Shown piece by piece: positions 35,192 to 64,000 of a DNA stretch of 64,000 nucleotides (position 1 is the stretch's first letter; every line of letters starts with the position of its first letter). The notes beneath the pieces are model-generated. The model saw only the letters and a program-made list of their open reading frames with translations, did not search any database and was not told where the DNA came from. Origin of the DNA: Candidatus Sulfomarinibacteraceae bacterium (lineage in GTDB: Bacteria > Acidobacteriota > Thermoanaerobaculia > Thermoanaerobaculales > Sulfomarinibacteraceae); the NCBI GenBank assembly GCA_041552055.1, contig JBFELO010000006.1, forward strand, positions 6,613 through 70,612. The letters are read 5' to 3'. The position numbers were made by a program, and so were the translations under genes.

Positions 35192-37486
35192 CTACAACCT
35201 CCACCCCAGCGTCACCGCGTAGCTCCGCCCCGGCTCGTTGATCGTGTTCCCGGACCGAAACGGGTTCCGCAGATAGGAGAAGTGCTCGCGGTATGTGCGG
35301 TCGAACACGTTCTCCAGGATGAGCTGGACGCGCCAGCGACCGAAGGTGATGCCGCCCTTCAGATTCAGGATCGCCCACCCCGGTGTGGCGACCTCGTCGA
35401 GGTCGGTGTCGATCTCGTCCTGATCCGCCGCTGCGAGCCATTCGGCCTCGGCGAACAGACGCGGGTTCTGCCACCGCAGGGCGAGGCGCGCCGTGAGCGG
35501 CGGCATCTCCGCGAGGTTCCCGGATGTCAAGTTCCGATCCGGATCCGTGTCCTTGGTGCCGCGGACGTACGACAGATTGCCGGACAGGTAGAACCTCGAG
35601 CTGACGGCGGCTGTGCCATCCAGCGAGACGCCCCGGAGGAGCGCGTCGACGTTGGTGTAGGTCTGCGCGCTCGGGTTCATCACTCCAGGCACCATGTTGA
35701 TCCGCTCCTGGCCGTACAGTGTGATGAAGCCGTCCACACGGTCGGCCCACATGCGGGCGGTCAGCAAACCGCTTCCGGCGCTCCACGTCAGCCCGACCTC
35801 GGCGCCGGTCGTGACCGGAGGATCGAGGACGGGGTTCCCGACCCACTCGACCCCCATCCTCTCGAGACCGAAGTACCGCTCGCGAGAATCCGGCGCACGG
35901 CTGGTGCGCGCAACACCGGCCGTCAGGTCGAGCCCCCTGCCGATGCGCTGGACCAGGAGCAGCGAGAACGACGGTTCGACGTCCTCTCGCGAGGTGTCCC
36001 GGACCCCGTGGTAGGCGAAGTACAGGTCGGTGTTGGCCTTGCCCTCGTCGGCCCTGGTCGACACGCGGTCGATCCTCCCGCCGGCCTCGAGCTGGGTGCT
36101 CGCCGAGAACTCGTGTCGCCAGCGGGCGGACAGGCCCAGAGCTTCGAGGTTCACGTCCGGGATCGAGAACTGGCGCATGTAGCTCATCATGCCGAGTTCG
36201 GTCCACGCGTCCCAGTTGCGCTGGTAGGCCTCGACGCCGACGGTGACCTCGCCGAGCACGACGTCGACCGACCCGCCGATGACCTCGGTGGAGGCGTTGG
36301 TGCCCATGCCCCAGCCGCGCGGCGCCGTGGCGCCGGTGGTGCGGTAGGTGTCTGTCATCCAGTGATCGACCCGCGTGCCGTAGGCGGTGGCGCGGATCTC
36401 GCGCAGGGTTCCGTCGCCGGATTTGGCGTAGCGGTATCCAAGAACGAGCCGGTCGGTGTTGTCGTACTCCGCGTCCATCTTCAGGGCCGAGTACAGGACG
36501 TCGTCCGACCGCTGGCCGGCGTACGACAGGTTGAGCTCGTGCACGTCGGCGGGCCGGAAGTACATCCGTGCCCAGCCGCTGTCGATGTTGTAGGCATCGA
36601 CACCCCCGACGGCGTCGGTGTAGTTGGCGGTCTCCGTGAACTTCTCGCCCGAGCCGTCGGCGAACGGCTCGCCGGAGCGATGGGACAGGCCGCCCAGGAC
36701 CGCCCATCGGTCGGTGCCGTAGCTGACGGTCGCAGACGGGTTGATCATGCCCCAGCTCCCGGTCGCCATCGAGACGTCGGCGGCCAAGCCCGCACCGGGC
36801 TTCTTGGTGACCACGTTGACCATGCCGCCCATGCTGCCCTGGGCCTCCATTCGTCCGGTCGTGGGAGCCACCTCGATGCGGTCGACCTCAGCGAAATCGA
36901 GGTGGAATGCGGGTGGGTCCATCCGGTTGGGACACGCTCCTGCGACCCGGGCGCCGTCGATCAGCACGGTGATGTCGTCCTGACGAAAGCCTCGAATCGA
37001 CACGTCATTGGCGATGCCGCCCTTGCGGACCTTCCACACGCCACCCATCCTGGACAGCGCCTCGCCGACGTCGCGCGCCGCGCTCTCGCGGAGCTCGGTC
37101 GCCTCCATCGTGGTGTGGGGCATCGGGGCGTCGACCTGCATGGTGTCGCGAAAGGTCGCGACCGAGAGCGCCAGGCGAATCCTGGTGGTCTCGCCCTCGC
37201 GGACGGCGACCTCGAGCGAGGCCGGGTGGAAACCGTGCAGGCTGCCGTTCACGGTGTAGCTCCCGGAATCGAGACCCGACATGCGAAACGCGCCGCCCTC
37301 GCCCGTGATGATCGTGCGGTCGGCGCCGCCCTCCTCACCCTGAACCGTCACGGTGACTCCCGGAAGGCCGGTGTCTCCGGGGCCCGTCACGGTTCCCGCC
37401 AGGCCGCTGGTGGCGGCCAGGGCAGGCACCGTCAGCGACGACAGCGCGAGGGCGATCGAGATCTTGCTCAACATTGAAATACTCAT
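35192..37486 (-). CDS. TonB-dependent receptor with an OprC/NosA-like copper-site signature
   Basis: Signal peptide, a CarboxypepD_reg-like N-domain and a plug. The plug contains GACPNRMDPP (CxxxM). VDHWMTD (HxM) lies 190 residues downstream. Confidence 0.85.
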   Translation of the reverse strand: MSISMLSKISIALALSSLTVPALAATSGLAGTVTGPGDTGLPGVTVTVQGEEGGADRTIITGEGGAFRMSGLDSGSYTVNGSLHGFHPASLEVAVREGETTRIRLALSVATFRDTMQVDAPMPHTTMEATELRESAARDVGEALSRMGGVWKVRKGGIANDVSIRGFRQDDITVLIDGARVAGACPNRMDPPAFHLDFAEVDRIEVAPTTGRMEAQGSMGGMVNVVTKKPGAGLAADVSMATGSWGMINPSATVSYGTDRWAVLGGLSHRSGEPFADGSGEKFTETANYTDAVGGVDAYNIDSGWARMYFRPADVHELNLSYAGQRSDDVLYSALKMDAEYDNTDRLVLGYRYAKSGDGTLREIRATAYGTRVDHWMTDTYRTTGATAPRGWGMGTNASTEVIGGSVDVVLGEVTVGVEAYQRNWDAWTELGMMSYMRQFSIPDVNLEALGLSARWRHEFSASTQLEAGGRIDRVSTRADEGKANTDLYFAYHGVRDTSREDVEPSFSLLLVQRIGRGLDLTAGVARTSRAPDSRERYFGLERMGVEWVGNPVLDPPVTTGAEVGLTWSAGSGLLTARMWADRVDGFITLYGQERINMVPGVMNPSAQTYTNVDALLRGVSLDGTAAVSSRFYLSGNLSYVRGTKDTDPDRNLTSGNLAEMPPLTARLALRWQNPRLFAEAEWLAAADQDEIDTDLDEVATPGWAILNLKGGITFGRWRVQLILENVFDRTYREHFSYLRNPFRSGNTINEPGRSYAVTLGWRL

Positions 37487-37488
37487 GG

Positions 37489-37794
37489 TCAGGCTCTCCG
37501 CCCGAGGTCCGTAAATCCTGTCGGTAATTCGATCTGGCTGCAGCGACCCCGAGATTTCCGGGTTGTCACGCCGAAGGGGCGTTCAGCCCCCGGCTGATGG
37601 TGGTCGGTCGGGCGTGGTCGGGCCGTCCGGCCCCTGGTGATCATTCCGACCAGCAAGGCCGAGACGGCTGCGCCTCCCGCGCCCACGCAGGCGAAACAGG
37701 ACGAGCACGCGCCGCCCGCGCACACGAAGGACGGCAGGTAGGCCGACAGGCCGGCCGACACGCCGACCGCGGCGGCGACATATGTGGCCCGCAT
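37489..37794 (-). CDS. Small membrane protein with a C-x4-C-x2-C-x2-C cluster between two hydrophobic segments
   Basis: ATG 37794 lies 8 nt after a strong AGGAGGTGA. Sequence: YVAAAVGVSAGLSAYLPSFVCAGGACSSCFACVGAGGAAVSALLVGMI. It is tightly packed between neighbours, with 2-3 nt gaps. Confidence 0.55.
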   Translation of the reverse strand: MRATYVAAAVGVSAGLSAYLPSFVCAGGACSSCFACVGAGGAAVSALLVGMITRGRTARPRPTDHHQPGAERPFGVTTRKSRGRCSQIELPTGFTDLGRRA

Positions 37795-37797
37795 AGC

Positions 37798-38808
37798 TCA
37801 CTCACCTCCTGCCGCGGCGCGCCTATGCACCCCATCCAGCGGCGCTTTGGTGCCGCAGGGTGCTTGACGTACCGCGGCGAACGCCGCCGCGCCCTTCGGA
37901 ATCGAAAATCCCGCTGACAGCGGCAATTCGCCGTCCTCATTCCGAAACCCGGTGAGATGCCCGGGCTCGCTCGCAGGCCTGCCGTAGTAGATGGCCTCGG
38001 TCGGACAGCTCTCCTGGCACAGCCGGCACGGTATGCACGACAGCTGGTTAATGGTGGGCGAGCCCTTGGTCTCGATCGCCCACGTCGGGCAGACGCGGGC
38101 GCACTCGCCGCAGTTGGTGCAACTGCTATGGTCGATGTGCATCCTGCGACCGAAACGCACTCCAATCCGGTTGGAGAGCGCATCGAGGGCACCAATCGGG
38201 CACAGCATGTTGCAGTAGGCGCGGCCGCCCTTGGCGAAGATGCCGAGAAACAGCAGCAGCCCGAGGTTGACGACTCCCTGGAACCTCAGGAGGTACGCCA
38301 GATCACCCTGGTTGAACGCGGCCCCGAACAGCCGCGGGACGGCGGCGAAGTTGCAGTAGTTGCAGCACAGGCTGCCGATCCCGATCGCCGGGGCGATCAT
38401 GAAGACCGACAGGTAGGCGTAGCGGAACGAGGGCGCCGGTGTGTTGGAGAAGTCGAGCTTCAACGAGGAGGGTACGATCGTGCTGCCGAGCTCGAGCGGG
38501 GCGGCCACCGGGCACAGGTGGCTGCACCAGTGCCTTCCGAGCGCGAAGGTTGTCGCGAGGATGCCGACGACCAGCGCCACGCCCATGTAGCTGCGGACGA
38601 AACCCGTCAGGAACGCCGTCGCGCTGGTGCCCTCCCGCCACACGAAGAACATGCGTGGACACCACCGCCCGCAGAAGTTCACGTCCGCTGTGAGCTGGAC
38701 GACCGCTGCCAGCGGCGGTAGGAACAGGATGATCGAGGCCAGAAGGATCACGGTCCGGTATCGGGCCCAGAACGATGTGGCGCGGGGTGTGTCGTGATCA
38801 GCCTTCAT
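37798..38808 (-). CDS. NapH/NosH/MauN-type membrane polyferredoxin
   Basis: Three CxxxCP motifs (CGRWCP, CSHLCP, CNMLCP) and two 4Fe-4S motifs (CTNCGECARVCP, CIPCRLCQESCP). ATG 38808 follows GGAGGGGAGGG. Confidence 0.8.
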   Translation of the reverse strand: MKADHDTPRATSFWARYRTVILLASIILFLPPLAAVVQLTADVNFCGRWCPRMFFVWREGTSATAFLTGFVRSYMGVALVVGILATTFALGRHWCSHLCPVAAPLELGSTIVPSSLKLDFSNTPAPSFRYAYLSVFMIAPAIGIGSLCCNYCNFAAVPRLFGAAFNQGDLAYLLRFQGVVNLGLLLFLGIFAKGGRAYCNMLCPIGALDALSNRIGVRFGRRMHIDHSSCTNCGECARVCPTWAIETKGSPTINQLSCIPCRLCQESCPTEAIYYGRPASEPGHLTGFRNEDGELPLSAGFSIPKGAAAFAAVRQAPCGTKAPLDGVHRRAAAGGE

Positions 38809-39412
38809 GGTGGTGACCCTCCCCTCCACCGAAGATCACCGGGATCTCGAGCACCGGTTTGTCGGTGGCCGTGTCGTGGAAGGTGACCGCGTACCTCCCG
38901 GCGGGGCGTGGCCCGGCGTGGAAGCGATCCGGGTCTCGGGAAAACTGGTCGAGACAGGACTGCGAGCAGAGCCACACGGTCCGTCCGTGATGCGCGAATC
39001 CGATGAAGTCGTCCTGCTTCCCCATCCCGCACACCGGATCGACCTCGGCCGGCCGCATCACCACCCACAGCGTGAAGCGGTCCCTGGGTTGGAGACCGAT
39101 CAATGTGTGGTCTTCGAAGCGGGGACGCCTTCGCAGACCGAGGTCGATGACGGGATCGGAACCGTACACGTCGTAGGAGAGCGCCGGCCCTCCCTCCACG
39201 GCCACACGAGTGTCGCCGCGGTAGGGGGGCAGGATCGTGCCGGTCACCACCAGGGTGTAGCGGTCCTTGCCGCTCGGCAGGTGCACCGGATGATGGGCCT
39301 TGCCTCCCTTGACGGAGACCATGCCCATTGCGTGAGCCGAGTCTCCGGGCCGGTACCAGGCGGCCGCGACCGAGAGGACGACAGCGAACGAGAACACCGC
39401 GAGACGTTTCAT
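38798..39412 (-). CDS. Exported YHS/TRASH-domain protein with a His-rich C-terminus
   Basis: Signal peptide MKRLAVFSFAVVLSVAAA. YHS-like DPVCGMGKQ...WLCSQSCLDQFSRDP. Tail GGGEGHHHEG. Confidence 0.7.
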   Translation of the reverse strand: MKRLAVFSFAVVLSVAAAWYRPGDSAHAMGMVSVKGGKAHHPVHLPSGKDRYTLVVTGTILPPYRGDTRVAVEGGPALSYDVYGSDPVIDLGLRRRPRFEDHTLIGLQPRDRFTLWVVMRPAEVDPVCGMGKQDDFIGFAHHGRTVWLCSQSCLDQFSRDPDRFHAGPRPAGRYAVTFHDTATDKPVLEIPVIFGGGEGHHHEG

Positions 39413-39471: not shown

Positions 39472-41868
39472 TCAGAAGCGGTAGGCGACGCGCGCGAGCA
39501 CGTACCTGGGCGCGGTTGGTGAGTAGCGACGACCGCCGTACAGGTCTTTCTGAGCCTCCACCGCGTACCGCCTGTCGAACAGGTTCTGGATGAGCAGCGC
39601 CACCTCGAACTTGCGAGCCTGGAAACCCAGGGTGAGGTCGGTGACGAAGCTGTACCCCTCGTACATCTCGCTGTTGGCGTTGTCCATCCAGTACTCGCCC
39701 CAGGTGTTGGCCGTGGCCTGCACGAAGGCGCCCGAGCGGTGCACGTACCCGGCGAACACCGAGTAGTAGTGTTCCGGGATGAACGGCAGGGCGTTGCCGC
39801 TCCGGTCGAGGTTGCGGCCGAACGCCGGCTCGGAGAACTCCTTGAACGTGTAGTCGGAGTAGGTGTAGCTGCCGCCCAACGAGACCCCGAGCCACGGCAT
39901 CCAGGTGACGGCCAGCTCGAGGCCCTTCTTTTCGGTCTCACCCGCGTTGACGTAGGCGGTTTCGCCGTAGGGCTGGATCACCTGGACCACCTCGTCCTGC
40001 ACCGGGCTGTAGTACACCGCGGTGTCCAGGGTGAGGTACTGCCGGCGGGCCTTGAAGCCGACCTCGTAGTTCATGACCTTGGTGAGGTCCAGGTCGGGGT
40101 TGAGGATCAGCTCGTCCGAGGTCGGCGTCTGGGTGCCGGTCGAGATGTTGCCGTAGAAGTGGAATGCGTCGCTCAGGTTGCATACCGCACCGATTCGAGG
40201 GCTGAACGCCGTGTAGGTCTTGACGGTGTCGATCGGGCCCTCGCCGTCGACGTAGCTCCCGCTGCTCCAGTCGTAGTCGATCCACTCGTGGCCTGAGACG
40301 TCGAATTTGATGCGGTCGAATCGGACACCCACGTCCACCAACCAGCGATCTCCGAGCTGGAGCGACTCCTGGGCGTAGATGCCGTACAGCGAGGTTTCCC
40401 TGCTCAGCGACCGCATCCGGTCGCCGACCTCGTCCGACAGGGTCGAGAGGATGCGGCCGCTCGGTGTCGTCACGACGTCGGCGTAGGTGTACGCCTCTGA
40501 GTCCTGGTTGTCGGCACGCGCGGTGACCCCGCCGGTGAGAACGCCGAACCCGTGATCGTAGTCGGCCTGCAGGTCGAGACCGCCGACCCAGGTGTCGGCC
40601 TCGTTGATCCGCGCCGTGATCGGGTGGAAGTGACTCCACGAGTTGAGGTACAGCAGCGGCATGAACTGGACCTTGCCAAAGCTCTTGACCAGCTTCGAGC
40701 CGAAGAACAGGATCTCCGAGTTCCTGGAGTTGTGCTTCCACGGCTCGCCGGTGCGTTCGACATCGCCGCTCTCCAAGTAGGGGGTCCACTGGTCGACGCC
40801 GGAGTCATTGCTGACGATGAGCCGCCCCGGAAGCTGGAGATCGGCGTCGGTGTAGCTGATGAAGTTCTCCCACACCCATCCGTTCCCCAGAATCCACGAG
40901 GGCTGCAGGGTGAACTGGGTGGTGTCGAACTCGTTCCACTCGCGCCAGTCGTTGGTCGACTGACGACGGCTGAAGTTGAGATTGAAGAAGTGCGTGTCCG
41001 CGATGTCGCCGGTGTAGCCGACCTGCAGGTTCCGGGCGCCGTAGTTGCCCACGTCCAATCGCGCATTCGCACCCTGGCCGTCGAACGGGCTCTTGGTGAC
41101 GACGTTGATGGCGCCGCCGGTCGAGTTGATCCCCCACAGGGTCGAGTTCGGCCCGCGCACGACCTCGATCCTGTCCACCAGATGGGTGTCCACGAGGTCG
41201 AGCCTGGTCAGGCTGTCGGGGTCCGTGATCGGGATCCCGTTGAGCAGTAGCATGACCTCGCGGATGGCGTAGCGCGCCTTGAGCCCCGCACCCCGGATGA
41301 TCAGGCGTGCGTCGTACCCCTGATTCTTGGACTCGATCAGCGTGCCCGGGGTGCCGGCGATCGCCTCCTTGATGTTGGTCATGGGGGTCTTGGATATGGT
41401 GTCCGGGCCGATGACGCTCACGGCCGCCGGGACCTGCTCGGTGGGCCGTGCGGTCCTGGTCGCCGTGACGGTGATCGACTCTTTGAAGCGGGCGGTCAGC
41501 GCGACGTCGTGCTCCACCTCGCGGCCGTCTTCGAGCTCGATGGTGGCGGCGTAGGATTCGTACTCGGGGTTGTCCACCTTGATTGTGTAGTTCCCCGGCT
41601 CCAGCCCGGTGAACGCGTACCTGCCGTGGTCCTGAGTCGTGGCGCGGCTCGCGAGCTCGAGCTCCGCGCGCTCGAGGTGCAGGGTGACCCCCGGAACCCC
41701 GTCAAGCTGGTCGTACGAAGCGGTCACCACCCGGCCGGTTATCGCGCCGATGGCGCCGTCTTCGGCCCTCGGGTCCGCACCGGGTGCACAGACGAATATG
41801 CACAGCAAACCGCAGATCAGGTGGACGGCTCGACGTTCACCCGAATCGCGAGATCGTGAGCAGGTCAT
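39472..41868 (-). CDS. TonB-dependent receptor (CarboxypepD_reg N-domain, plug, barrel)
   Basis: Plug text IIRGAGLKARYAIREVMLLLNGIPITDPD and VVRGPNSTLWG, with a C-terminal VAYRF. ATG 41868 follows GGGAGGAAG. Confidence 0.9.
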   Translation of the reverse strand: MTCSRSRDSGERRAVHLICGLLCIFVCAPGADPRAEDGAIGAITGRVVTASYDQLDGVPGVTLHLERAELELASRATTQDHGRYAFTGLEPGNYTIKVDNPEYESYAATIELEDGREVEHDVALTARFKESITVTATRTARPTEQVPAAVSVIGPDTISKTPMTNIKEAIAGTPGTLIESKNQGYDARLIIRGAGLKARYAIREVMLLLNGIPITDPDSLTRLDLVDTHLVDRIEVVRGPNSTLWGINSTGGAINVVTKSPFDGQGANARLDVGNYGARNLQVGYTGDIADTHFFNLNFSRRQSTNDWREWNEFDTTQFTLQPSWILGNGWVWENFISYTDADLQLPGRLIVSNDSGVDQWTPYLESGDVERTGEPWKHNSRNSEILFFGSKLVKSFGKVQFMPLLYLNSWSHFHPITARINEADTWVGGLDLQADYDHGFGVLTGGVTARADNQDSEAYTYADVVTTPSGRILSTLSDEVGDRMRSLSRETSLYGIYAQESLQLGDRWLVDVGVRFDRIKFDVSGHEWIDYDWSSGSYVDGEGPIDTVKTYTAFSPRIGAVCNLSDAFHFYGNISTGTQTPTSDELILNPDLDLTKVMNYEVGFKARRQYLTLDTAVYYSPVQDEVVQVIQPYGETAYVNAGETEKKGLELAVTWMPWLGVSLGGSYTYSDYTFKEFSEPAFGRNLDRSGNALPFIPEHYYSVFAGYVHRSGAFVQATANTWGEYWMDNANSEMYEGYSFVTDLTLGFQARKFEVALLIQNLFDRRYAVEAQKDLYGGRRYSPTAPRYVLARVAYRF

Positions 41869-42032: not shown

Positions 42033-42464
42033 TCAGGCGGTCGGGGGAGCGCGCGGGGAGGATGGCGAGAGGGCCGCGGTCGACGATGGGATCACGTCGA
42101 GGCGCGTGGCTGTCAGCCGGTGCCCGCACGGCGCGGCAACGGCGAGCCCCCGATCGGTCGTCAGCAAGACCCATGACTGGCCCGGCGGCCGCTGGAGGGT
42201 CCCCGCTGCGGCGCCGCAGCGCTCGTGGGAGTGCCACGCCGGTGCGCCGGCACCTCTGCGAATGATCGGCGGCCGGGGATCGTCGGGCCGGGCCGGGCCG
42301 TGGTTGCAGCAGTCGGCCGTGCAGTGGCACTCGCCGGGACAGCAGCAGTAGTAGGTGGACGCCGGAGTGCCGCCGGCGGCGCTCGGAGCGACGCCCGCAC
42401 CGGCGACTTGGCCCATCGCCACCACCAGCGCCAGTGTCACTCGGAGAAGGCGTCTGTCCTTCAC
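42033..42464 (-). CDS. Secreted Cys/His-rich small protein (YYCCCPGECHCTADCCNHG). First gene after the sigma54 promoter.
   Basis: GTG 42464 gives the signal-like KDRRLLRVTLALVVAMGQVAGAG. Eight Cys and two His fall within 19 residues. The SD is weak, and the coding status of the Pro/Arg-rich C-terminal part is uncertain. Confidence 0.45.
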   Translation of the reverse strand: MKDRRLLRVTLALVVAMGQVAGAGVAPSAAGGTPASTYYCCCPGECHCTADCCNHGPARPDDPRPPIIRRGAGAPAWHSHERCGAAAGTLQRPPGQSWVLLTTDRGLAVAAPCGHRLTATRLDVIPSSTAALSPSSPRAPPTA

Positions 42465-42576: not shown

Positions 42577-42593
42577 CGCAAGATCCGTGCCGA
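42577..42593 (-). promoter_or_regulatory. Sigma54 (-24/-12) promoter cGGCACGgatcTTGCg
   Basis: The reverse complement of 42578-42592 matches TGGCACG-N4-TTGC at all positions except the first T. It lies about 110 nt upstream of GTG 42464, with an A8 tract about 27 bp further upstream. Confidence 0.6.
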
Positions 42594-42974: not shown

Positions 42975-43135
42975 CTACTGCGGGCGTGCCGTCTTTGACA
43001 ATGTTGGGAGCACGACCACCCAGTCGGGGTGGAACGTTGGGTCCCAACATTGTCTAAGGGGGCAACCGCGGGGAGCGCGCCGGGGAGAGGGGACGTAGAA
43101 GCGTCTCCAACCTGTCGGACCGAGAGGCTCCGGCC
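42975..43135. repeat. Composite intergenic repeat, hairpin copy (arms 42997-43009 / 43042-43054)
   Basis: gacaatgttggga ... tcccaacattgtc, with flanks ctgcgggcgtgccg and ggggcaaccgcggggagcgcgccggggagagggg. Confidence 0.85.
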
Positions 43136-43248
43136 CACCCGCCCTCATGCCCCCACGCCCTCAAGCAAGCCCCCATGCCCTCAGGCCCTCAAGCCTTTCC
43201 CGGGCGGGTGGGGAATCCGGCTTCGACTTCGGCTACGCCGTGACGAGT

Positions 43249-43319: not shown

Positions 43320-43802
43320 ATGATTCGGTCCATGTCGTGTACACCGATCCGGTTGTTGTTCGGCGCTTTCGTGCTGACCGCGGTGCTGGTCGGCCCCGCG
43401 ACCGCGGCGGACCCGCGGCCGCCCGGACCGAAGGACCGCTGCCCGGTGTGCGGCATGTTCGTCGAGAAGTACCGCAACTGGACCGCGACAGTCATGTTCG
43501 AGGACGGATCTCAGGTCTTCTTCGACGGGCCCAAGGACCTGTTCAAGTTCCTGCTCGACCCGACCAGGTACGGCCGCGAGAAGTCGCCGATCGCAGACGT
43601 GTTCGTGACGGACTACTACACCACCAAGCTCCTGGACGCCAGGGAGACGCTGTTCGTGGTGGGCAGCGACGTCATGGGCCCGATGGGACCCGAGCTGGTG
43701 CCAATCACGACCCCGGAGCATGCGGAGGCGTTCCGCGCCGACCACGGGGGAGAGCAGGTCCTCACCTTCGACCAGGTCACGGCGGACGCGATCCCGAAGT
43801 GA
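43320..43802 (+). CDS. nosL: NosL-family copper chaperone (exported)
   Basis: DRCPVCGMFVEKYRNWTATVMFEDGSQVFFDGPKDLFKF, with a signal peptide. Confidence 0.85.
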   Translation: MIRSMSCTPIRLLFGAFVLTAVLVGPATAADPRPPGPKDRCPVCGMFVEKYRNWTATVMFEDGSQVFFDGPKDLFKFLLDPTRYGREKSPIADVFVTDYYTTKLLDARETLFVVGSDVMGPMGPELVPITTPEHAEAFRADHGGEQVLTFDQVTADAIPK

Positions 43803-43804
43803 CC

Positions 43805-44116
43805 ATGCTCAAGCACAGGGTCTTCGCCGCGGTCACGCTGCTCGAGGTCGCCCTCCTGGTGGTACTGGTGCTCCACTGCAACGCGCGCCGTCAGCGAGAG
43901 TCGGCGAGCGTGATCCCCGCCAACCGGCACCTCGCCCGGCAGCTCGAGCTCACGGACCTCGCGATCTGGACGGAGGCGCGCTACACCCGCCACCCCTCGC
44001 AGGCGGACCGGTTCGCACCATTCCAGGACCTGCCGTCCTCGCTCGAGCACTTCCCCGCGGGATCGGTCGTCCCGCCCCCCGAGCGCGCCCCCGAGCCGGG
44101 GCGGGGATCGCGGTAG
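43805..44116 (+). CDS. Small single-pass membrane protein, unknown function
   Basis: The ATG lies 3 nt after the nosL stop. TM helix VFAAVTLLEVALLVVLVL. Confidence 0.45.
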   Translation: MLKHRVFAAVTLLEVALLVVLVLHCNARRQRESASVIPANRHLARQLELTDLAIWTEARYTRHPSQADRFAPFQDLPSSLEHFPAGSVVPPPERAPEPGRGSR

Positions 44117-57300: not shown

Positions 57301-57329
57301 CCATGACCATTCAGACAAAGGAGCGAGCC

Positions 57330-58766
57330 ATGCAACTGCTCAAACGACTCGACCGAACCGTGGTCCTGGTCGGCGCCCTGGCCCTGGTGCTGGCGGCGAC
57401 GCCGGCCGGTGCCCAGGTGTTCGTGCAGTGCCCGGGGGACCTGGACGGTGACGCCATCCCGGATCCGCCGGCCAGCAATCTCAACCCCGAGGTGAAGTGC
57501 ACCCACCTCTCGTCCGGGGACGGCTTCGCCATGACGGCGGACGGCGAGCCGACCTACATCTTCAGCTTTGCCGACCTGACCGGCCAGGTGTCGGCCCCCA
57601 CGGGGCCCGACTTCGATCCGTTCGCCCAGGGCGCCGCGCTGCGGCGGGGCATGCTGGCCGCCGAGTGGCCGGCGCCCACCGTCGAGCTGGACGAGGGCGA
57701 CGAGTGGTACCTCACTCTGACCAACGTCGGCATGATGATCCGGCCCGACCTGTTCGACCCGCACACGGTGCACTTCCACGGCCACCCCAACATGGCCCCC
57801 GTGTTCGACGGCCTGCCCGAGTCGGGCCTGTCCATCAACATGGGTGCCAGCCTGAGCTACTACTACAAGATCGTCGAGCCGGGCACCTACATGTACCACT
57901 GCCACGTCGAGGCCACCGAGCACATGCAGATGGGCATGCTCGGCAACCTCTACGTGAACCCGGCGCAGAACGGCACGCCGCTGGGCGTGTGTGCCGGTGG
58001 CGCCCCGTGCACGCAGTTCGTCTACAACGACGGCGACGGGTCGACCGGCTACGACGTCGCCTATCCAATCCAGCTCGGCTCGTTCGACAAGGAGTTCCAC
58101 GACGCGAGCTGGAACGTGCAGCCGCTGCCGTTCGCCGACATGAAGGACGAGTACTTCATGATCAACGGCCGCGGCTACCCGGACACCATCAACGTCTCCG
58201 AAGCGTACTGCAGCGTCGGCGGCAGCGTGTACTGTGGCGGGAGGCTAGGGACCAACTTCTGTAAGAACTTCAAGATCGCGCTGCCGCCACCGCTGGGCAA
58301 CATCCAACTCGACCTCGGTGAGTGCGTCGCTTCGTTGGCGCCGCCTACCGACGGTGTCGACCGGCTCAACGGCGGCAAGCCGACGCAGCGGATCGACAGC
58401 CGCATCGTGGCGACCCAGGGCGAGAGGGTGCTGCTCAGGATCTCCAACCTGAACGTCACCACGTTCAACACCCTGACCAGCCCGTGGCTGCCGATGCAGG
58501 TCGTGGGGCGCGACGCCAAGCTGCTGCGCAGCCCGGCCGGTGGCGACATCTACCGCACCACCAACTCGGTGACCCTCGGTGGCGGCATGTCGATGGATGT
58601 GATCCTCGACACCGCCGGCGTGGCACCGGGCACCTACTTCCTGTACTCGAACAACCTGTACCAGCTAAACAATCAGCTGTGCGATCCGACAGATCTGGAT
58701 TGCTTCCAGTACGACAACTTCCAAGGCGGTCTCGGTGGCATGCTGACCGAGATCGTGATCCAGTGA
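57330..58766 (+). CDS. Two-cupredoxin-domain multicopper-oxidase subunit A. The T1 site and half of the trinuclear ligands lie in domain 1.
   Basis: ATG 57330 follows AAGGAG, and a signal peptide is present. Domain 1 carries HTVHFHGH and YHCHVEATEHMQMGM. Domain 2 has no His motif. Confidence 0.85.
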   Translation: MQLLKRLDRTVVLVGALALVLAATPAGAQVFVQCPGDLDGDAIPDPPASNLNPEVKCTHLSSGDGFAMTADGEPTYIFSFADLTGQVSAPTGPDFDPFAQGAALRRGMLAAEWPAPTVELDEGDEWYLTLTNVGMMIRPDLFDPHTVHFHGHPNMAPVFDGLPESGLSINMGASLSYYYKIVEPGTYMYHCHVEATEHMQMGMLGNLYVNPAQNGTPLGVCAGGAPCTQFVYNDGDGSTGYDVAYPIQLGSFDKEFHDASWNVQPLPFADMKDEYFMINGRGYPDTINVSEAYCSVGGSVYCGGRLGTNFCKNFKIALPPPLGNIQLDLGECVASLAPPTDGVDRLNGGKPTQRIDSRIVATQGERVLLRISNLNVTTFNTLTSPWLPMQVVGRDAKLLRSPAGGDIYRTTNSVTLGGGMSMDVILDTAGVAPGTYFLYSNNLYQLNNQLCDPTDLDCFQYDNFQGGLGGMLTEIVIQ

Positions 58767-58779
58767 GAGGAGGAGCGTC

Positions 58780-60204
58780 ATGAAAGTGAAGACCAACCGC
58801 ACTGGGCGCTGGCTCGGCGTGACGCTCGCGGCCGCCGCCCTGCTGGTGCTGACGCCGGTCGCCGAGGCGGCGATCGACGGCATCACCGGGACCGACTTCC
58901 AGTTCGTCGCGAGGGACGGCTACATCAGCACCCCCGACGGCGGCTCGATCTACTGCTGGGGCTACGCCGACGACGGCGGATCGCTCGGCGGCGCCATGCA
59001 GTACCCGGGCCCGACCCTGATCGTCAATCAGTCTGAAACTATTACGATCACCCTCAAGTCGGAGATCCTCGACACGAAGACGCCCGACCCTGCGGACTAC
59101 CTGCCGGTGTCCCTGATCTTTCCCGGCCACTCGGCGTCCGCAACCGGTGGGTCGACCGGGGCGATTACCCAGGAGTCAACGGGTCCCGCAGACACAGTGA
59201 CCTACAGCTTCATCGCCAACTCGCCCGGCACCTACCTCTACCACAGCGGCACCGATCCCAAGGTGCAGGTCGAGATGGGCCTGCTCGGCGTGATCGTCGT
59301 GCGGCCGACCGGCTACAACGATATCAACCGCACCGCCTACGGCACGGAAGCGACCGCCTACGGCCACGAGTACCTGTTCCTGCACACCGAGATGGACCCG
59401 CGGGTCCACCAGCACTACGAGTTCGGCCACGTGGGACCGGAGTGGGACAACACCGAATGGTTTTCGGTCTACTGGTTCCTCAACGGCCGCGCCGCGCCGG
59501 ACGACCTGCTCGAATCCTATGTGCCGTGGCTGCCGCACCAGCCGTACAACATCACCCCGCGCGCCCACCCGGGCGACAAGGTGCTGATGCGGGTGGTCGG
59601 CGCCGGCCGCGAGTCGCACCCGTTCCACCACCACGGCGACCACGCACAGGTGATCGCCCAGGACGGGCAGCTGCTCGACAGTGACGGCCTCGACGAGCTC
59701 GATCTCGCCTACCAGGTGTTCACCATCATGGTCAACCCGGGTCAGACCACGGACGCCTTGTTCGACTGGACCGGCGAGAAAATGGGCTGGGACATCTACG
59801 GCACCCTGGCCGACGGCATGTCGGCGCACGACTGTCTCGATATCTACAACAACGCGACCGGCGCGATGGTGCCGGACAACTACGCCGACACGGAGACGCA
59901 GGGATGCGATCCTGCTGCGGCGACCCCGTGCTTCCCCTATGAGTGGTGTCCCGACCACGACCTGCCGATCCCGGTGACCCTGCCCGAGACCCAGAACCTG
60001 GCGTTCGGCGCCTGGTGGTCGGGCAGCCCGTACCTCGGCACCGGCGGCGCGCTGCCTCCTGGTGAAGGCGGCCTCAACCCGAACTCGGGCTACCCCTTCA
60101 TGTGGCACTCCCACACCGAGAAGGAGCTCACCAACAACGACATCTTCCCCGGCGGCATGCTGACCATGTTCTTCATCGAGCCGCACGGCGTGGCGATCGA
60201 CTGA
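58780..60204 (+). CDS. Two-cupredoxin-domain multicopper-oxidase subunit B. Trinuclear-type ligands lie in domain 2, and there is no T1 cysteine.
   Basis: GGAGGAG SD and a signal peptide. Domain 1 carries degenerate IFPGH and YLYHSG. Domain 2 carries HPFHHHGDH and FMWHSH, with Ser where the T1 Cys would be. Confidence 0.85.
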   Translation: MKVKTNRTGRWLGVTLAAAALLVLTPVAEAAIDGITGTDFQFVARDGYISTPDGGSIYCWGYADDGGSLGGAMQYPGPTLIVNQSETITITLKSEILDTKTPDPADYLPVSLIFPGHSASATGGSTGAITQESTGPADTVTYSFIANSPGTYLYHSGTDPKVQVEMGLLGVIVVRPTGYNDINRTAYGTEATAYGHEYLFLHTEMDPRVHQHYEFGHVGPEWDNTEWFSVYWFLNGRAAPDDLLESYVPWLPHQPYNITPRAHPGDKVLMRVVGAGRESHPFHHHGDHAQVIAQDGQLLDSDGLDELDLAYQVFTIMVNPGQTTDALFDWTGEKMGWDIYGTLADGMSAHDCLDIYNNATGAMVPDNYADTETQGCDPAAATPCFPYEWCPDHDLPIPVTLPETQNLAFGAWWSGSPYLGTGGALPPGEGGLNPNSGYPFMWHSHTEKELTNNDIFPGGMLTMFFIEPHGVAID

Positions 60205-60220
60205 ACGGAGGAGTACTGAG

Positions 60221-61249
60221 ATGAAGAAGCAACCACTGATGACAGCCGTCAGGCGGTCGGCGCTGGTGGCGGCGGTGCTCGCCCTCGTGGCAGTGCCCTC
60301 GTTCGCCGTCGATCTGGTCGCCGTCGCAGCCGTGTGGACGCCGCCCGGTGGCGGGACCCCGATCCCGATGTGGGCCTTCCAGGAAGGCGCGACCTGTCCG
60401 ACACCTCCCGTTGCCTGGGACGTGGGGCCCGCGATCCGGGCGACAGCCGGCGAACTGATTTCGATCAACCTCCTGAACTGCCTCGCAGAGCCGATATCGC
60501 TCATCGCGCCGGGCCTGATGCCCACGACGCCTCCCGATCCCGTGTGGGTCGACGCGGCAGGGACTTTCGTGGCGACCGGTGCGCGACCCCTGGGCGACAC
60601 CACGTCGCGGGTGCGCTCGTTCACGAACGAGGTCGCGCCGGCTGCGAGCGTGATCTACGAGTGGACCGCCAGCGCCGGATCGTTCATCTACCAGAGCGGA
60701 ACCATGGTCTCGATGCAGGTGCCGATGGGCCTGTACGGCCCGGTGATCGTTGAGGCGGCTGCTGGAGAGGCCTATACAGGGATCACGTACGGCAACGAGG
60801 CGATCCTGTTCTACTCCGAGATCGACCCGGCGGTGAATAACGCCGGTGTTCCGGCCAGTGCCGACTACCGGCCGCAGTACTTCCTGGTCAACGGCGAGTC
60901 ATACCCGACGGCCGTGCCGGAGTACGCGACGCCGCCGGCTGCGGGTGAGGATCTGCTGGTCCGGTTCTTCAACGCCGGCCTCGAGACCTCGATGCCGATG
61001 CTCGACGGCGTGCTCATGCAGGTCGTGGCCGAGGACGGCAACGTCACGCCGGGCGGCAGCGTGTATCCCGCGACGCCGGCGGCCTACTCGCTGCTGCTGC
61101 CGGCGGGCAAGACCATCGACGCCATGATCGCGGCGGTTCCGGACGGCAAGTACGCGGTGATCGACCGCACGCTGCGGCTCGACAACGGACCTGGTGTCGA
61201 CGACGACGGCGGCCAGCTGGTGTTCCTCGACTACGCGCCCGCACCGTAG
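60221..61249 (+). CDS. Two-cupredoxin-domain paralogue C with no histidine at all
   Basis: GGAGGAG SD and a signal peptide. MCO-like strand text is FIYQSGTMVSMQVPMGLYGPVIVE and YFLVNGESYP. I found zero His in the 342 aa. Confidence 0.7.
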   Translation: MKKQPLMTAVRRSALVAAVLALVAVPSFAVDLVAVAAVWTPPGGGTPIPMWAFQEGATCPTPPVAWDVGPAIRATAGELISINLLNCLAEPISLIAPGLMPTTPPDPVWVDAAGTFVATGARPLGDTTSRVRSFTNEVAPAASVIYEWTASAGSFIYQSGTMVSMQVPMGLYGPVIVEAAAGEAYTGITYGNEAILFYSEIDPAVNNAGVPASADYRPQYFLVNGESYPTAVPEYATPPAAGEDLLVRFFNAGLETSMPMLDGVLMQVVAEDGNVTPGGSVYPATPAAYSLLLPAGKTIDAMIAAVPDGKYAVIDRTLRLDNGPGVDDDGGQLVFLDYAPAP

Positions 61250-61326: not shown

Positions 61327-61426
61327 GGGGGCGGGTGTGCGTGGCCACCGAGCGATATACTCCAGAGTCGCGACGCGCGCTACCAGGATCGCGGACCGTC
61401 GAACCGGATAAGGAGAAGGCACAGGG

Positions 61427-61909
61427 ATGAGTGATTCGTCGAGCTTCAACAACCGCCGGCTGCGTCCGACCCTCACCGCATTTCTTCTCATCGGGACGTG
61501 CCTGGTGCTGGCAGGCTGCGCCTCCTCGGGCGGCGACGTCGAGTCCGAGGCGGCGTCCGAGCCGCCGCCGCCGAGCGCCGAGGAGCAGTGGGGGGTCGAG
61601 GTCACCAGCGTGCGGGTGTCGGCGGCCGGCCACATGATCGACTTCCGCTACCGGATCCTGGACGCGGAGAAATCGAAACCTCTGTTCGAGCGCCAGACCA
61701 AGCCGTACCTGGTCGATCAGGCGAGCGGCAAGGTGTTGCAGGTGCCGCGCACCGCCAAGCTCGGCCCGTTGCGCCCCTCCAACGTGACCCCGGCCGAGGG
61801 CAAGATCTACACCATGCTGTTCGGCAACACCGGCGGCGTGGTCCAGCCCGGCGCCAGGGTGACCGTGGTGATCGGCGACTTCCGGGTCGAGGACCTGGTG
61901 GTGGAGTAG
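61427..61909 (+). CDS. Lipoprotein of unknown function
   Basis: AAGGAGAAGG SD, and the lipobox LVLAGC. Confidence 0.6.
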   Translation: MSDSSSFNNRRLRPTLTAFLLIGTCLVLAGCASSGGDVESEAASEPPPPSAEEQWGVEVTSVRVSAAGHMIDFRYRILDAEKSKPLFERQTKPYLVDQASGKVLQVPRTAKLGPLRPSNVTPAEGKIYTMLFGNTGGVVQPGARVTVVIGDFRVEDLVVE

Positions 61910-61913
61910 GCCG

Positions 61914-64000
61914 ATGGCGCGGCAGCGGGTTCCAATCCGAATTGCGCTGGTCGCGGTCGGTGTTCTCGCCGCGGTCTGGAACCCAACTGCAGCAGCGGGT
62001 GAGATCGGGCGTGCCCTGCGCGAATCTCTGGCGGGGGCGGCGCCGACCGACGAACTCGCGGTCATCGTTGATTTCCACGATCGGTTCGAGGTCGCGAGCA
62101 TCAAGCGCGTCAGAGGGAGAGCCGAGCGCCGCACCGCGCTGGTGCGCGAGCTGAAGCGCCGCAGCGAGGAATCCCAGGCGCCGGTGCGTGACCTGCTGCG
62201 TGCACGCAGCGTCACGGATCACACCGTGCTGTGGGCGATCAACGGTCTCGCGGTGGCCGCCACTCCGGAGGTCATCCGGGAGCTCGCCGCGCGACCCGAG
62301 GTCGCCGGGGTGCGGCTCGACGCCACGGTGGTTTTCGCCTCGGCCACCGCGGTAGCGAAGGCCGAGCCCGAGTGGAACCTCGAGATGGTGGGCGCTCCGG
62401 ATCTGTGGGCGCGCGGCCACACTGGCGCAGGGGTCGTGGTGGCGATCCTCGACACCGGGGTGGACGCGCTGCACCAGGACCTCGCGGACCGATATCGGGG
62501 CGGCAGCAACAGCTGGTTCGACCCGTACGGCCAGCGCGCCGAGCCGCACGACACGGACGGCCACGGCACCCAGGCGGCCGGACTGACCGTCGGCGGCGAT
62601 GCCGGCGGCACGGCCATCGGTGCTGCGCCCGGTGCCCGATGGATCGCGGCGCGGGTCTTCGACGACGACGGTGTGGGGACCCTGTCCGGCATTCACCAGG
62701 CGTTCCAGTGGCTGCTCGATCCGGACGGTGACCCGGCGACCGACGATGCGCCCGACATCGCCAACAACTCGTGGGGCTTTCAGGAGCAGGTGAACGAGTG
62801 CTACCAGGAGTTCGTCGACGACATCGATCTGCTGCGCTCGGCCGAGATCGTGGTTGTCTTCTCGGCCGGCAACTCGGGCCCGGCATCGGACACCAGCGTC
62901 AGCCCGGGCAACAACTTGGGCGCGTTCCCTGTCGGGGGTGTCGACGACGCCGGCCAGGTGATGTCGTCGAGCAGCCGCGGGCCGTCGGCCTGCGGTGGCG
63001 GGACCTTTCCCACGCTGGCGGCGCCGGGTCTCGGGGTGCGTACGTCGGACCTGACCTTCGGCGGCGTGGTGCCGGACTCGTACGCCGCGGTCTCGGGGAC
63101 GTCGTTCGCTGCGCCGCACGTGGCCGGGGCAGCGGCCCTGCTGCTGAGTGCCCATCCAGGAGCCACCTTGGATCAGCTCGAGCAGGCCTTGACCGAGGGT
63201 GCCGAGGACCTGGGTCCGGACGGGCCGGACGACGACACGGGATACGGCCTGCTCGACGTGGTGCGCGCGGAGAGCGTGCTCGCCGGTCTGGTGGGCAACG
63301 GTGGCGGGGTGACGGCGTTCACCGACGAGACGCTGTTCCTCGCCGCACTGTCCGGCGCCGACACCGTGCAGGAGGGGTTCGAGGACGGAGGGGCTTGGAG
63401 CGCCACGCGCAGCCCGGACGCTGCACCGGCGGTGACTTCCCAGGGCGTCACCTGGACGTCGAACCACCCGGACAACCAGGTCAGCACCAGCGGTGGATCC
63501 GCCCGGACGGGTGATTGGGGGTTCTACTCGAACCCGCACGGCGACCAGAGCGTCGCCAATCCGGCCGACTTCATCGAGGACGGCTTCGTGGGTTCGTCGG
63601 CCGAGCGGTTGATCGCAGTCGGCGGCTGGTTCGCAGGCACTGCCGGCGGCAAGCTGCGGCTGGTGTTGGACGGCAACGAGGGCGGAGTCGTCGAGTTCGG
63701 TCCGATAGACCCGGGACACCGGTTCTACGGCGTCGTGGCGGACGCCGGCTTCACCAGCTTCGAGTTCCGCGAGATCGAGGGAAAGCTGGAGGACCAGAAG
63801 TTCGTGTTCGCGGACGACGTCACGCTCGCCATCGCGACGGGTGGGAACTCGCCGCCGGACGGCACGATCGTTCGTCCGGCCACCGACGTGACGGCGGCAA
63901 TCGGCCAATCGGTGTTCTTCGAAGGCTCCGCCACCGATCCCGACGGCGATCTGGTCACGGTGGCGTGGGACTTCGGCGACGGGACGACCTCGACGCAGCT
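61914..64000 (+). CDS. Secreted S8 (subtilisin-family) peptidase with C-terminal extension and a PKD-like domain. The 3' end lies beyond the window.
   Basis: It is absent from the ORF track because it has no stop in the window. My translation from ATG 61914 gives the catalytic triad text VAILDTGVD, DGHGTQAAG and GTSFAAPHVAG, and later DPDGDLVTVAWDFGDGTTS. Confidence 0.85.
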   Translation, partial: MARQRVPIRIALVAVGVLAAVWNPTAAAGEIGRALRESLAGAAPTDELAVIVDFHDRFEVASIKRVRGRAERRTALVRELKRRSEESQAPVRDLLRARSVTDHTVLWAINGLAVAATPEVIRELAARPEVAGVRLDATVVFASATAVAKAEPEWNLEMVGAPDLWARGHTGAGVVVAILDTGVDALHQDLADRYRGGSNSWFDPYGQRAEPHDTDGHGTQAAGLTVGGDAGGTAIGAAPGARWIAARVFDDDGVGTLSGIHQAFQWLLDPDGDPATDDAPDIANNSWGFQEQVNECYQEFVDDIDLLRSAEIVVVFSAGNSGPASDTSVSPGNNLGAFPVGGVDDAGQVMSSSSRGPSACGGGTFPTLAAPGLGVRTSDLTFGGVVPDSYAAVSGTSFAAPHVAGAAALLLSAHPGATLDQLEQALTEGAEDLGPDGPDDDTGYGLLDVVRAESVLAGLVGNGGGVTAFTDETLFLAALSGADTVQEGFEDGGAWSATRSPDAAPAVTSQGVTWTSNHPDNQVSTSGGSARTGDWGFYSNPHGDQSVANPADFIEDGFVGSSAERLIAVGGWFAGTAGGKLRLVLDGNEGGVVEFGPIDPGHRFYGVVADAGFTSFEFREIEGKLEDQKFVFADDVTLAIATGGNSPPDGTIVRPATDVTAAIGQSVFFEGSATDPDGDLVTVAWDFGDGTTSTQ

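Follow-up and report, generated by a model that had tools for sequence, protein, structure and literature searches.

NosL and the outer-membrane receptor NosA/OprC were first defined through the maturation of NosZ, the nitrous-oxide reductase (PMC7558416). In the NosDFYL system of Pseudomonas stutzeri (Protein Data Bank (PDB) entries 7OSF-7OSJ and 7OG7), a NosL-family chaperone with a CxxCGM motif is encoded beside an ATP-binding cassette (ABC) ATPase/permease pair, with an OprC/NosA-type copper receptor nearby. Copper loading of secreted multicopper oxidases (MCOs) is little understood, with descriptions limited to CopA-dependent routes and to the helpers CutF and CopG (PMC8456105, PMC7558416), and the pairing of MofC and SCO1 with such oxidases is already known from the mofABC cluster of Leptothrix and the ompB cluster of Geobacter (PMC5566968). 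One recent bioinformatic precedent, from the Bacillales genome of Parageobacillus thermoglucosidasius, suggests that a NosDFYL relay without NosZ may feed another cuproenzyme (PMC13068155). Here, we describe a copper gene set from a Candidatus Sulfomarinibacteraceae bacterium (contig JBFELO010000006.1), contained in a stretch of 64,000 nucleotides to which we refer as the window. A sequence-only reading of this DNA had noticed a Nos-type copper maturation toolkit, lacking nosZ, wrapped around a split oxidase. We propose, with a probability of roughly 0.6, that three operons in the interval at 35-64 kb form a locus for building a secreted MCO complex and supplying it with copper.

Open reading frames (ORFs) of the window, whose G+C content is 64-71%, were picked by their third-position G+C bias and then scanned with Pfam and NCBIfam, while the 10 kb past the right edge were read from metagenome contigs of the same organism. 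The resulting map divides the 35-64 kb interval into three transcription units (Table 1). For comparison, a scan anchored on MofC and reduced to one genome per species yielded 80 loci, and sampling anchored on NosL yielded six independent contexts. Related loci were analyzed by tBLASTn with all window proteins and by clustering of the locus ORFs, and NosL in the MofC-anchored loci was detected with a hidden Markov model.

Table 1. Features of the copper and oxidase gene set, with positions in the window (nucleotides unless kb is given).
Feature	Position	Strand	Basis or remark
Sigma-54-dependent response regulator (REC, sigma-54 AAA+, HTH_8)	32907-34820	+	Pfam
Unit (i): receptor 2, YHS-like, polyferredoxin, 101-aa protein, OprC-like receptor	42.6 to 35.2 kb	-	
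OprC/NosA-like TonB-dependent copper receptor	35192-37486	-	TIGR01778, PDB OprC 6FOK, ligand alignment
101-aa small membrane protein, Cys-rich motif CAGGACSSCFAC	37489-37794	-	Last gene of receptor-2 cassette
Membrane polyferredoxin, NapH/MauN/CcoG type	37798-38829	-	Fer4_5 and two 4Fe-4S motifs
Secreted 204-aa protein, YHS/TRASH-like DPVCGM motif, His-rich tail	38798-39412	-	Sequence, subthreshold Pfam YHS
Second TonB-dependent receptor (receptor 2), siderophore/PqqU-like	39472-41868	-	Pfam, NCBIfam; first gene of receptor–YHS–polyferredoxin cassette
Sigma-54-like -24/-12 element, one mismatch, CGGCACGGATCTTGC	42578-42592	-	5' of receptor operon; weak evidence
Unit (ii): NosL, 105-aa protein, FtsX, ATPase, 335-aa protein, SCO1, 588-aa MofC-like	43.3-49.95 kb	+	
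NosL-family periplasmic copper chaperone, 160 aa	43320-43802	+	Pfam PF05573, PDB NosL matches
Conserved 105-aa single-pass membrane protein, motif WTEARYTRHPSQ...FQD...EHFPAGS	43799-44116	+	Homologues between NosL and FtsX
FtsX/MacB-type (type VII) ABC permease, 385 aa	44128-45285	+	Pfam FtsX, NCBIfam LolC/E-like
ABC ATPase of FtsE/LolD/MacB group, 232 aa	45282-45980	+	Pfam, NCBIfam
8-helix membrane protein, 335 aa	45983-46990	+	AlphaFold model, conserved Cys/His/Met motifs
SCO1/SenC copper chaperone, CxxxC and His	47574-48188	+	Pfam PF02630
MofC-like 588-aa protein, haem motif C99-x-x-C102-H103 and periplasmic-binding domain	48185-49951	+	CxxCH, Peripla_BP_6
PilZ gene	50096-50803	-	Between units (ii) and (iii)
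Perfect sigma-54 promoter TGGCACGGACATTGC	51776-51790	+	57 bp 5' of 88-aa ORF and giant gene
Unit (iii): 88-aa ORF, 1713-aa giant, three MCO-like proteins, lipoprotein, S8 protease	from 51.8 kb	+	
88-aa leader ORF, CNHDHC motif	51847-52113	+	First gene after sigma-54 promoter
Secreted 1713-aa giant protein	52159-57300	+	N-terminal Ig-like SdrD_B and CarboxypepD_reg; C-terminal right-handed beta-helix, ~residues 1115-1690
MCO subunit 1	57303-58766	+	Type-1 site H154, C200, H207, M212; trinuclear His H157, H159, H199, H201
MCO subunit 2	58780-60204	+	Other four trinuclear His H283, H285, H443, H445; without type-1 cysteine
MCO subunit 3, cupredoxin-like	60221-61249	+	No conserved copper ligands
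160-aa lipoprotein, lipobox LAGC	61427-61909	+	Conserved with oxidase genes
S8 subtilase with PKD domains	61914-64000, runs off window	+	Pfam
Palindromic element, six copies	3004-3061, 13405-13473, 18776-18833, 42997-43054, 47185-47243, 51311-51369		

The genes flanking the oxidase stay together across distant bacteria. All six NosL-anchored contexts hold the genes for NosL, a protein of ~105 aa, an FtsX-type permease, an ATPase and a membrane protein of ~335 aa in that order, which we call the NosL/ABC cassette. Three of the six continue into intact SCO1 and MofC genes and L092 into a SCO1 fragment only; of the contexts running into SCO1, two show giant or MCO genes within the fetched sequence. 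Among the 80 MofC-anchored loci, SCO1 adjoins the MofC-like gene in 76, the cassette is present in 32, and NosL was detected in 21 (20 of these with the cassette). Of the 42 loci that span 18 kb or more, 39 have an MCO within 10 kb of MofC–SCO1. The cassette was found at 21 of 29 split-oxidase loci compared to 6 of 33 loci with a single-chain oxidase. Six or more different orders of these linked genes occur among Acidobacteriota, Desulfuromonadales, Desulfobulbaceae and Gammaproteobacteria. The order cassette–SCO1–MofC–giant–MCO1-3 is shared by the window, L018 and L049, while MCO1-3 stand ahead of the giant gene in L014, and the oxidase genes come first, followed by the cassette, in L007. The order is oxidase–lipoprotein–protease–SCO1–MofC–cassette in L026 (Desulfobulbaceae), the oxidase operon is divergent in L035, L041 and L044, and MofC and SCO1 are swapped in L042 and L047 (Gammaproteobacteria). 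Linkage that persists through such reshuffling in several phyla makes it likely that the copper genes work together with the split oxidase, and synteny kept through rearrangement is the strongest available evidence for such a putative cooperation.

The same comparison bears on the alternative that this is a general copper-acquisition locus, whose receptors, NosL and cassette would serve all cuproenzymes, including cbb3 and aa3 oxidases, with the oxidase operon a mere neighbour under the same copper-responsive control. Enrichment of the cassette at split-oxidase loci and linkage kept through at least six rearrangements argue against it, as does the finding that SCO1–MofC stands beside an MCO in nearly all of the long loci and never beside a CuA protein. 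In L011 and L093, however, the cassette occurs alone, with no oxidase or SCO1 gene nearby, as a general role would predict. The arrays of L149 and L150 point in the same direction. They consist of co-oriented genes for a receptor, YHS, polyferredoxin, ExbB, TonB, NosL, a small protein, FtsX, the ATPase and the 8-helix protein, end with a kinase and a sigma-54 regulator after the 8-helix gene, and thereby tie the NosL cassette to TonB-dependent uptake. SCO1 proteins are also known to serve haem-copper oxidases (PMC7558416), and the window encodes a cbb3 oxidase cluster at 0.4-9.4 kb (CcoNO fusion, CcoP, CcoG, FixH, DsbD_2 and CcoI); with CcoG, CcoI and FixH, that cluster nevertheless already has copper-assembly genes of its own. 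Weighing both sides, we consider a purely general role unlikely.

We then asked how much of the gene set is of Nos type. NosL matched Pfam PF05573 with 106.5 bits (cutoff 24, E 1.7e-30) and the PDB entries 7OG7 (E 3e-10) and 7OSF (4.5e-5), with its CPVCGM aligned to the CHLCGM and CHVCGM of solved NosL proteins, which bears out the earlier identification. The OprC/NosA-like receptor is likewise well supported (see below). Thus, the locus shares with NosDFYL the chaperone, its gene's position beside an ABC ATPase/permease pair, the nearby receptor and, plausibly, an ATP-driven periplasmic hand-over. Apart from NosL and the OprC/NosA-like receptor, however, no part of the set was identified as Nos-related: the ABC pair, the beta-helix, SCO1–MofC and the polyferredoxin/YHS genes are better placed elsewhere, and the label of a Nos-type toolkit is not supported. 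In contrast to NosDFYL, the locus lacks NosZ and NosD, its permease is of FtsX/type VII rather than the six-helix ABC-2 type of NosY, and it encodes two additional membrane proteins, of 105 and 335 aa, that have no counterpart in nos clusters. Window NosL itself starts with a Sec-type signal, MIRSMSCTPIRLLFGAFVLTAVLVGPATAADP, without a lipobox ahead of the cleavage region (judged by eye), and would thus be exported as a soluble protein, whereas characterized NosL is a lipoprotein. The Parageobacillus locus differs in a similar way, as it encodes true NosD, NosF and NosY and has a nitrite-reductase-like client, so that only NosL is shared (PMC13068155).

As had been stated, the window encodes no NosZ-like protein: there was no Pfam match, and the CuA motif (C-x3-C-x3-H-x2-M) was absent from all six frames of the window as well as from ~90 related loci (L001-L091). 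A canonical nosZ just past the edge had been considered; none lies in the 10 kb beyond the right end. No plausible window ORF matched the Pfam families of NosZ, NosD, NosF or NosY, and NosR did not match any of the scanned ORFs. These results leave little room for a genuine Nos accessory set, in which NosL and the receptor would act for a nitrous-oxide reductase whose gene lies in another part of the genome. The history of both proteins in NosZ maturation speaks for such a set, but the 64 kb and the following 10 kb contain no nosZ, nosD, nosF, nosY or nosR, and a CuA protein within 10 kb is missing from all of the ~90 related loci. Moreover, the soluble, non-lipoprotein NosL is only ~25-30% identical to solved NosL proteins (by eye, from the alignments) compared to 45-85% among cassette orthologues across phyla. 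The carriers also include metal- and sulfur-cycling lineages that are not known to reduce N2O. We regard this as the least probable of the explanations considered. Together, the rearranged synteny and the lack of CuA agree with the earlier suggestion that the copper gene set would be dedicated to an extracytoplasmic oxidase other than NosZ.

Next to NosL stands a motor of a different class. The ABC ATPase/permease pair reported earlier is present, but it matches the FtsX/MacB/LolCDE kind best, and its permease is not of NosY type. The ATPase matched FtsE, LolD and MacB best (E about 1e-56), and NosF was not among the best 25 of its 188 matching NCBIfam families; MacB_PCD was detected in orthologues of the permease and not in the window copy. 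By these matches, the pair is assigned to the type VII (MacB/FtsEX/LolCDE) class. In relatives, the gene for the 105-aa protein always lies between NosL and FtsX. The 335-aa protein has no Pfam or NCBIfam match, yet it belongs to a family with 856 representative homologues of very uniform length. Its AlphaFold model (predicted local distance difference test (pLDDT) 95, predicted template-modelling (pTM) score 0.92) consists of eight long helices and resembles no PDB fold in a meaningful way (best E 0.22; template-modelling score <0.4 for full-length matches). Three motifs are near-invariant in the family, namely G85-A-M-C88 (M87-C88), S167-C-C169 (C168-C169) and P249-x-H251-x-C253-P-F. They fall in the second, fourth and sixth loops and hence on one side of the membrane. 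Since the fifth loop is strongly basic (GRARGSRY), the positive-inside rule suggests that the motif face of the model is periplasmic, and the protein is thus a candidate partner of NosL in binding Cu(I). A description of the NosL/FtsX-type cassette or of its link to MCOs was not found in the full-text literature, the coverage of which is incomplete.

In L011 (8388-9809) and L093 (3358-4779), a gene directly 5' of the stand-alone cassette, beside a two-component system, encodes a 473-aa fusion of a NosL domain and an outer-membrane channel domain (Phenol_MetA_deg).

The oxidase itself appears to be divided among several polypeptides. The three cupredoxin or MCO-like proteins noticed earlier are indeed encoded at 57303-61249; that they are the only copper enzymes holds for 35-64 kb, but not for the window as a whole, which includes the cbb3 cluster. 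In subunit 1, H154-x2-H157-x-H159 and H199-C200-H201-x5-H207-x4-M212 are kept in all 15 orthologues. Subunit 2 conserves H280-x2-H283-x-H285 and H443-S-H445, while the orthologue alignment of subunit 3 revealed no conserved His or Cys. Thus, the ligand set of a two-domain MCO, one type-1 site and eight trinuclear histidines, is complete but split across subunits 1 and 2; with ligands that are conserved and complementary, the oxidase would have a genuine need for copper. The best PDB matches of both subunits are the trimeric two-domain oxidases 3G5W (Nitrosomonas europaea) and 2ZWN (metagenomic), along with nitrite reductases. In enzymes of this class, the copper clusters are located where subunits meet. 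The three proteins are therefore most naturally read as a putative heterotrimer that contains a single type-1 copper and a single trinuclear cluster. The split oxidase shares the HxxHxH and HCHxxxHxxxxM motifs with the two-domain oxidases and with six-domain enzymes such as ceruloplasmin. In contrast to the two-domain oxidases, the ligands of one trinuclear cluster are distributed over two polypeptides and the third has none, which would imply one active site per heterotrimer, where a homotrimer has three.

The three MCO genes co-occur in related loci with the gene for the 1713-aa giant protein, and all four products start with signal peptides. The C terminus of the giant protein had been described as a NosD/CASH-like beta-helix. 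A profile-based AlphaFold model (pLDDT 79, pTM 0.86) agrees with a right-handed beta-helix, but no specific similarity to NosD was found by sequence or fold. Identity with NosD was rejected, as TIGR04247 gave 27.1 bits over 41 residues (N-terminal cap) against a cutoff of 300 and the Pfam NosD family (PF05048) did not match. A phmmer comparison of the giant protein with PDB NosD gave no match at E<=10, and the Foldseek top 50 for the beta-helix model contained polysaccharide lyases and hydrolases at E>=7.6e-4 and no NosD chain. A lack of similarity to NosD had been named in the earlier reading as a refuting outcome, and the NosD component of that reading falls accordingly. Within residues 1342-1355 (56182-56223), C1342 is near-invariant and H1355 invariant among 37 homologues, as part of the motif VCGNFxxGxGGGIGH; the two residues could form a metal or active site on the secreted beta-helix. 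Homology of the giant protein and the split oxidase to single-chain MofA/OmpB-type oxidases was also rejected, because neither the giant protein nor MCO1-3 showed BLASTP similarity to the single-chain oxidases of related loci at E<1e-3. Downstream, the subtilase gene is kept 3' of the lipoprotein gene in several related loci. The full-length subtilase has 1231 aa and is followed by a 761-aa cadherin/Big_9 protein. Past the right edge, the 10 kb that were read comprise the remaining part of the protease gene, the gene for the cadherin-like protein and polyketide genes.

SCO1 and the 588-aa protein are encoded between the cassette and the oxidase operon. SCO1, which had been named correctly, scored 76.4 bits against PF02630 (cutoff 22.8), with the motifs TCTTICP and KMSHxPL conserved across 54 sequences. 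More than 1000 close homologues were found for the 588-aa protein, and its CxxCH motif is invariant. Its best genome matches in the MofC-anchored scan come from Holophagae and Thermoanaerobaculia (55-66% identity), and other loci belong to Geobacteraceae, Geothermobacter, Desulfobulbaceae, Desulforhopalus, Nitrospirota, Geothrix and several Gammaproteobacteria. MofC combines a cytochrome c domain with a periplasmic-binding domain, and GSU1398 of Geobacter sulfurreducens is a SCO1/SenC chaperone (PMC5566968). By homology, the two window proteins correspond to MofC and SCO1, the accessory pair already described for MofA/OmpB oxidase clusters. As in the clusters of Leptothrix MofA and of G. sulfurreducens OmpB (GSU1394, with GSU1397 as the MofC-like protein), the pair stands beside a secreted MCO. 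In distant relatives of the window locus, this classic arrangement is found: SCO1–MofC next to single-chain MCOs of 1200-1800 aa with a single HCH motif, four or five HxH motifs and matches to Pfam Cu-oxidase, often with an FKBP isomerase gene. In closer relatives, by contrast, the oxidase next to SCO1–MofC is the giant protein together with three MCO-like proteins. By gene content, the locus falls among the oxidase clusters assisted by MofC–SCO1, although its oxidase is of another, split kind. It differs further in the added NosL/ABC cassette and copper receptors and in the lack of MofB, as no FKBP/MofB isomerase gene was found in the 35-64 kb interval.

At the uptake end of the locus, the earlier claim of an OprC/NosA-like receptor proved well founded. 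TIGR01778 (TonB-copper) was its top NCBIfam family and aligned over the full length, plug and barrel included; the score of 161.6 bits is below the equivalog cutoff of 472.45. OprC (PA3790; 6FOK) is its closest PDB relative (E 7e-18). All four copper ligands of OprC, C143, M147, H323 and M325, are matched by C185, M189, H375 and M377 of the receptor, and CxxxM-HxM is the published copper site of OprC (PMC7558416). The C-x3-M and H-x-M motifs are kept in six orthologues that adjoin NosL in Acidobacteriota loci. Unlike OprC, the window receptor bears an additional N-terminal CarboxypepD_reg domain.

An uptake receptor with an intact OprC site, co-located with the cassette in Acidobacteriota, argues against a copper-detoxification locus, in which a cuprous oxidase of the CueO/PcoA kind would act alongside a cassette and NosL that export or sequester excess periplasmic copper. 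MacB-type pumps do expel periplasmic substrates, and the MCO proteins gave weak NCBIfam matches to CopA-type oxidase. MCOs and periplasmic chaperones are also classic components of copper resistance (PMC7558416). However, the locus contains the insertion chaperone SCO1, window scans revealed no CusCBA, CopB or P-type efflux pump except the cbb3-linked CcoI, and surface-display proteins and a haem protein are encoded together with the oxidase, which is also the case in MofA/OmpB clusters. We hold detoxification to be very improbable.

The second receptor belongs to a separate module. In a scan anchored on the polyferredoxin, receptor 2, the YHS protein and the polyferredoxin formed a conserved cassette on ~30 metagenome contigs of at least 6 kb, mostly with no NosL or oxidase genes in reach. 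Alignment showed that receptor 2 lacks the OprC copper motif. In close Acidobacteriota relatives the OprC-like receptor gene abuts NosL directly; therefore, the receptor-2 cassette of the window looks like an insertion between the two. The YHS assignment made earlier rests on a visible DPVCGM motif, while the Pfam YHS (PF04945) score of 20.5 bits falls short of the 30.3 cutoff. Similarly, the supposed NapH/NosH-like polyferredoxin is a Fer4_5 protein with NapH/MauN (TIGR02163) as its top NCBIfam match, but at 55.4 bits it is below the cutoff of 213 and is equally close to CcoG (24% identity to the CcoG of the window over 220 aa, E 3e-7). With both groups it shares the Fer4_5 membrane domain with GRxWCxxxCP motifs and the two 4Fe-4S motifs; in contrast to them, it lacks FixG_C and is encoded in a receptor–YHS cassette, not in a cco, nap or nos operon. 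No NapG-like gene adjoins it in the window. CcoG-type proteins are described as cupric reductases (PMC7558416 and others). The polyferredoxin is thus a candidate periplasm-facing reductase, for which a role in converting Cu(II) to Cu(I) seems at least as plausible as a NosH-like one. The 101-aa protein encoded 3' of it is 59-79% identical in closer metagenome loci and weakly similar (36-39%) or undetected in more distant ones.

Just 3' of the one-mismatch sigma-54-like site and 5' of receptor 2, a possible ORF of 143 aa (42033-42464, minus strand) opens with a signal-like segment and includes a Cys-rich stretch, YYCCCPGECHCTADCCNHG. It has no homologues in related loci and an odd codon-position composition, and it is doubtful whether it is a gene.

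Taken together, the parts of the locus can be arranged into a putative pathway. Copper would cross the outer membrane through the OprC-like receptor, possibly aided by the receptor-2 cassette, whose YHS protein may bind the metal and whose CcoG/NapH-like polyferredoxin may reduce Cu(II) to Cu(I). NosL would capture Cu(I) in the periplasm. The type VII ABC machine, joined by the 105-aa and 335-aa membrane proteins, could then use cytoplasmic ATP hydrolysis to drive a periplasmic hand-over of copper, analogous to that by NosFY-NosD but built from unrelated parts. From SCO1 and MofC, the oxidase subunits exported by Sec would receive copper or else reducing equivalents. The subunits would assemble into a heterotrimer with four copper ions, one in the type-1 site and three in the trinuclear cluster, displayed with the giant beta-helix protein, the lipoprotein, the protease and the cadherin-like protein. 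A more ambitious version, which we put forward tentatively and would not yet favour, is that the five-protein cassette is an undescribed ATP-powered machine for periplasmic copper insertion, analogous to NosDFYL but independent of it and based on a type VII ABC scaffold, with a dedicated client in the form of a heterotrimeric "split six-domain" MCO displayed on the surface of metal- and sulfur-cycling bacteria.

Several points weigh against the proposal that the locus builds and supplies the oxidase complex. The cassette is not obligatorily coupled to the oxidase: in addition to the two stand-alone cassettes, eight split-oxidase loci have no cassette within 10 kb. The cbb3 oxidase, and probably an aa3 oxidase encoded elsewhere, are alternative clients of SCO1 and NosL, and MofC may carry electrons instead of handling copper. 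The absence of nosZ is established only within the window and the 10 kb to its right. FtsX-type systems are not known to handle metals. All functional steps are drawn from homology and neighbourhood, from which we infer the order of transfer, the direction of copper flow (inward, outward or within the periplasm), the cargo of MofC (copper or electrons) and the oxidase substrate. Last, no sigma-54 site with up to two mismatches lies 5' of the NosL operon in the window and none is conserved there in relatives, so that co-regulation of all three units is no more than possible.

If the proposal that this locus assembles and feeds a secreted MCO complex is correct, it would provide a candidate pathway that links outer-membrane uptake, NosL, an ABC motor and SCO1 to one defined oxidase, and it would extend the function of NosL past nitrous-oxide reduction. 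It also brings to light a common membrane protein family, the 856 representative clusters of the 335-aa protein, which has had neither annotation nor a match to a solved fold. The carriers include Geobacter relatives, Geothrix/Holophagae, Desulfobulbaceae, Nitrospirota and sulfur-oxidizing Gammaproteobacteria, groups in which OmpB/MofA-type oxidases have been tied to the redox cycling of iron and manganese. The split oxidase would represent a living intermediate between the trimeric two-domain and the six-domain oxidases.

With respect to regulation, the site at 51776-51790 is the sole perfect TGGCAC-N5-TTGC in the 64 kb. Because matches with up to two mismatches are fewer in the window than expected by chance, only this perfect and well-positioned site is taken as meaningful. 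At least nine relatives have an equivalent site, with no or one mismatch, 5' of either the giant gene or the 88-aa ORF, and similar one-mismatch sites precede the OprC-like receptor gene in L013 and L049. The sigma-54 response regulator is a candidate activator of the oxidase operon, and 17 of the 80 related loci contain a homologue, in many cases placed between the cassette and the giant gene. The 88-aa ORF is conserved at 40-58% solely in Acidobacteriota relatives, while Desulfobulbaceae have an unrelated ORF of ~106 aa in its position. No counterpart of the PilZ gene was detected by tBLASTn in any related locus.

The intergenic regions contain two types of repeat. The first resembles repetitive extragenic palindromic or miniature inverted-repeat transposable elements and consists of a palindrome, GACAATGTTGGG...CCCAACATTGTC, with 70-120 nt of conserved flanks. 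Three of its six copies lie between operons of the copper and oxidase locus, 5' of NosL, SCO1 and the giant operon; at 51.07-51.48 kb, copies are arranged in tandem. A role as a cluster-specific operator or activator site was rejected, as the copies at ~3.0, 13.4 and 18.8 kb stand beside unrelated genes. The second comprises C-rich repeats with an eight-base period (CCCTCAGG/CCCGCACG-like) at 34929-35190, 43134-43197 and 50044-50079, two of these sites being at convergent or terminal gene ends. An Rfam search of the long leader regions returned no family at threshold.

The part of the window 5' of the interval also encodes haem O and haem A synthases, TrkAH and two histidine kinases. In its cbb3 cluster, the catalytic subunit (6843-9353, minus strand) is a CcoN-CcoO fusion that combines COX1 and FixO in a single 836-aa ORF, with genes for an Rrf2 regulator and a DUF3179 protein nearby. 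Adjoining the kinases and the sigma-54 regulator, a gene at 25863-29189 (minus strand) encodes a multihaem cytochrome of 1108 aa with seven cytochrome c7-like stretches and MtrC/MtrF-like domains. Weak relatives of this cytochrome (24-28% identity) stand beside MofC–SCO1 in the gammaproteobacterial L031 and L037, and its placement hints at a context of extracellular electron transfer.

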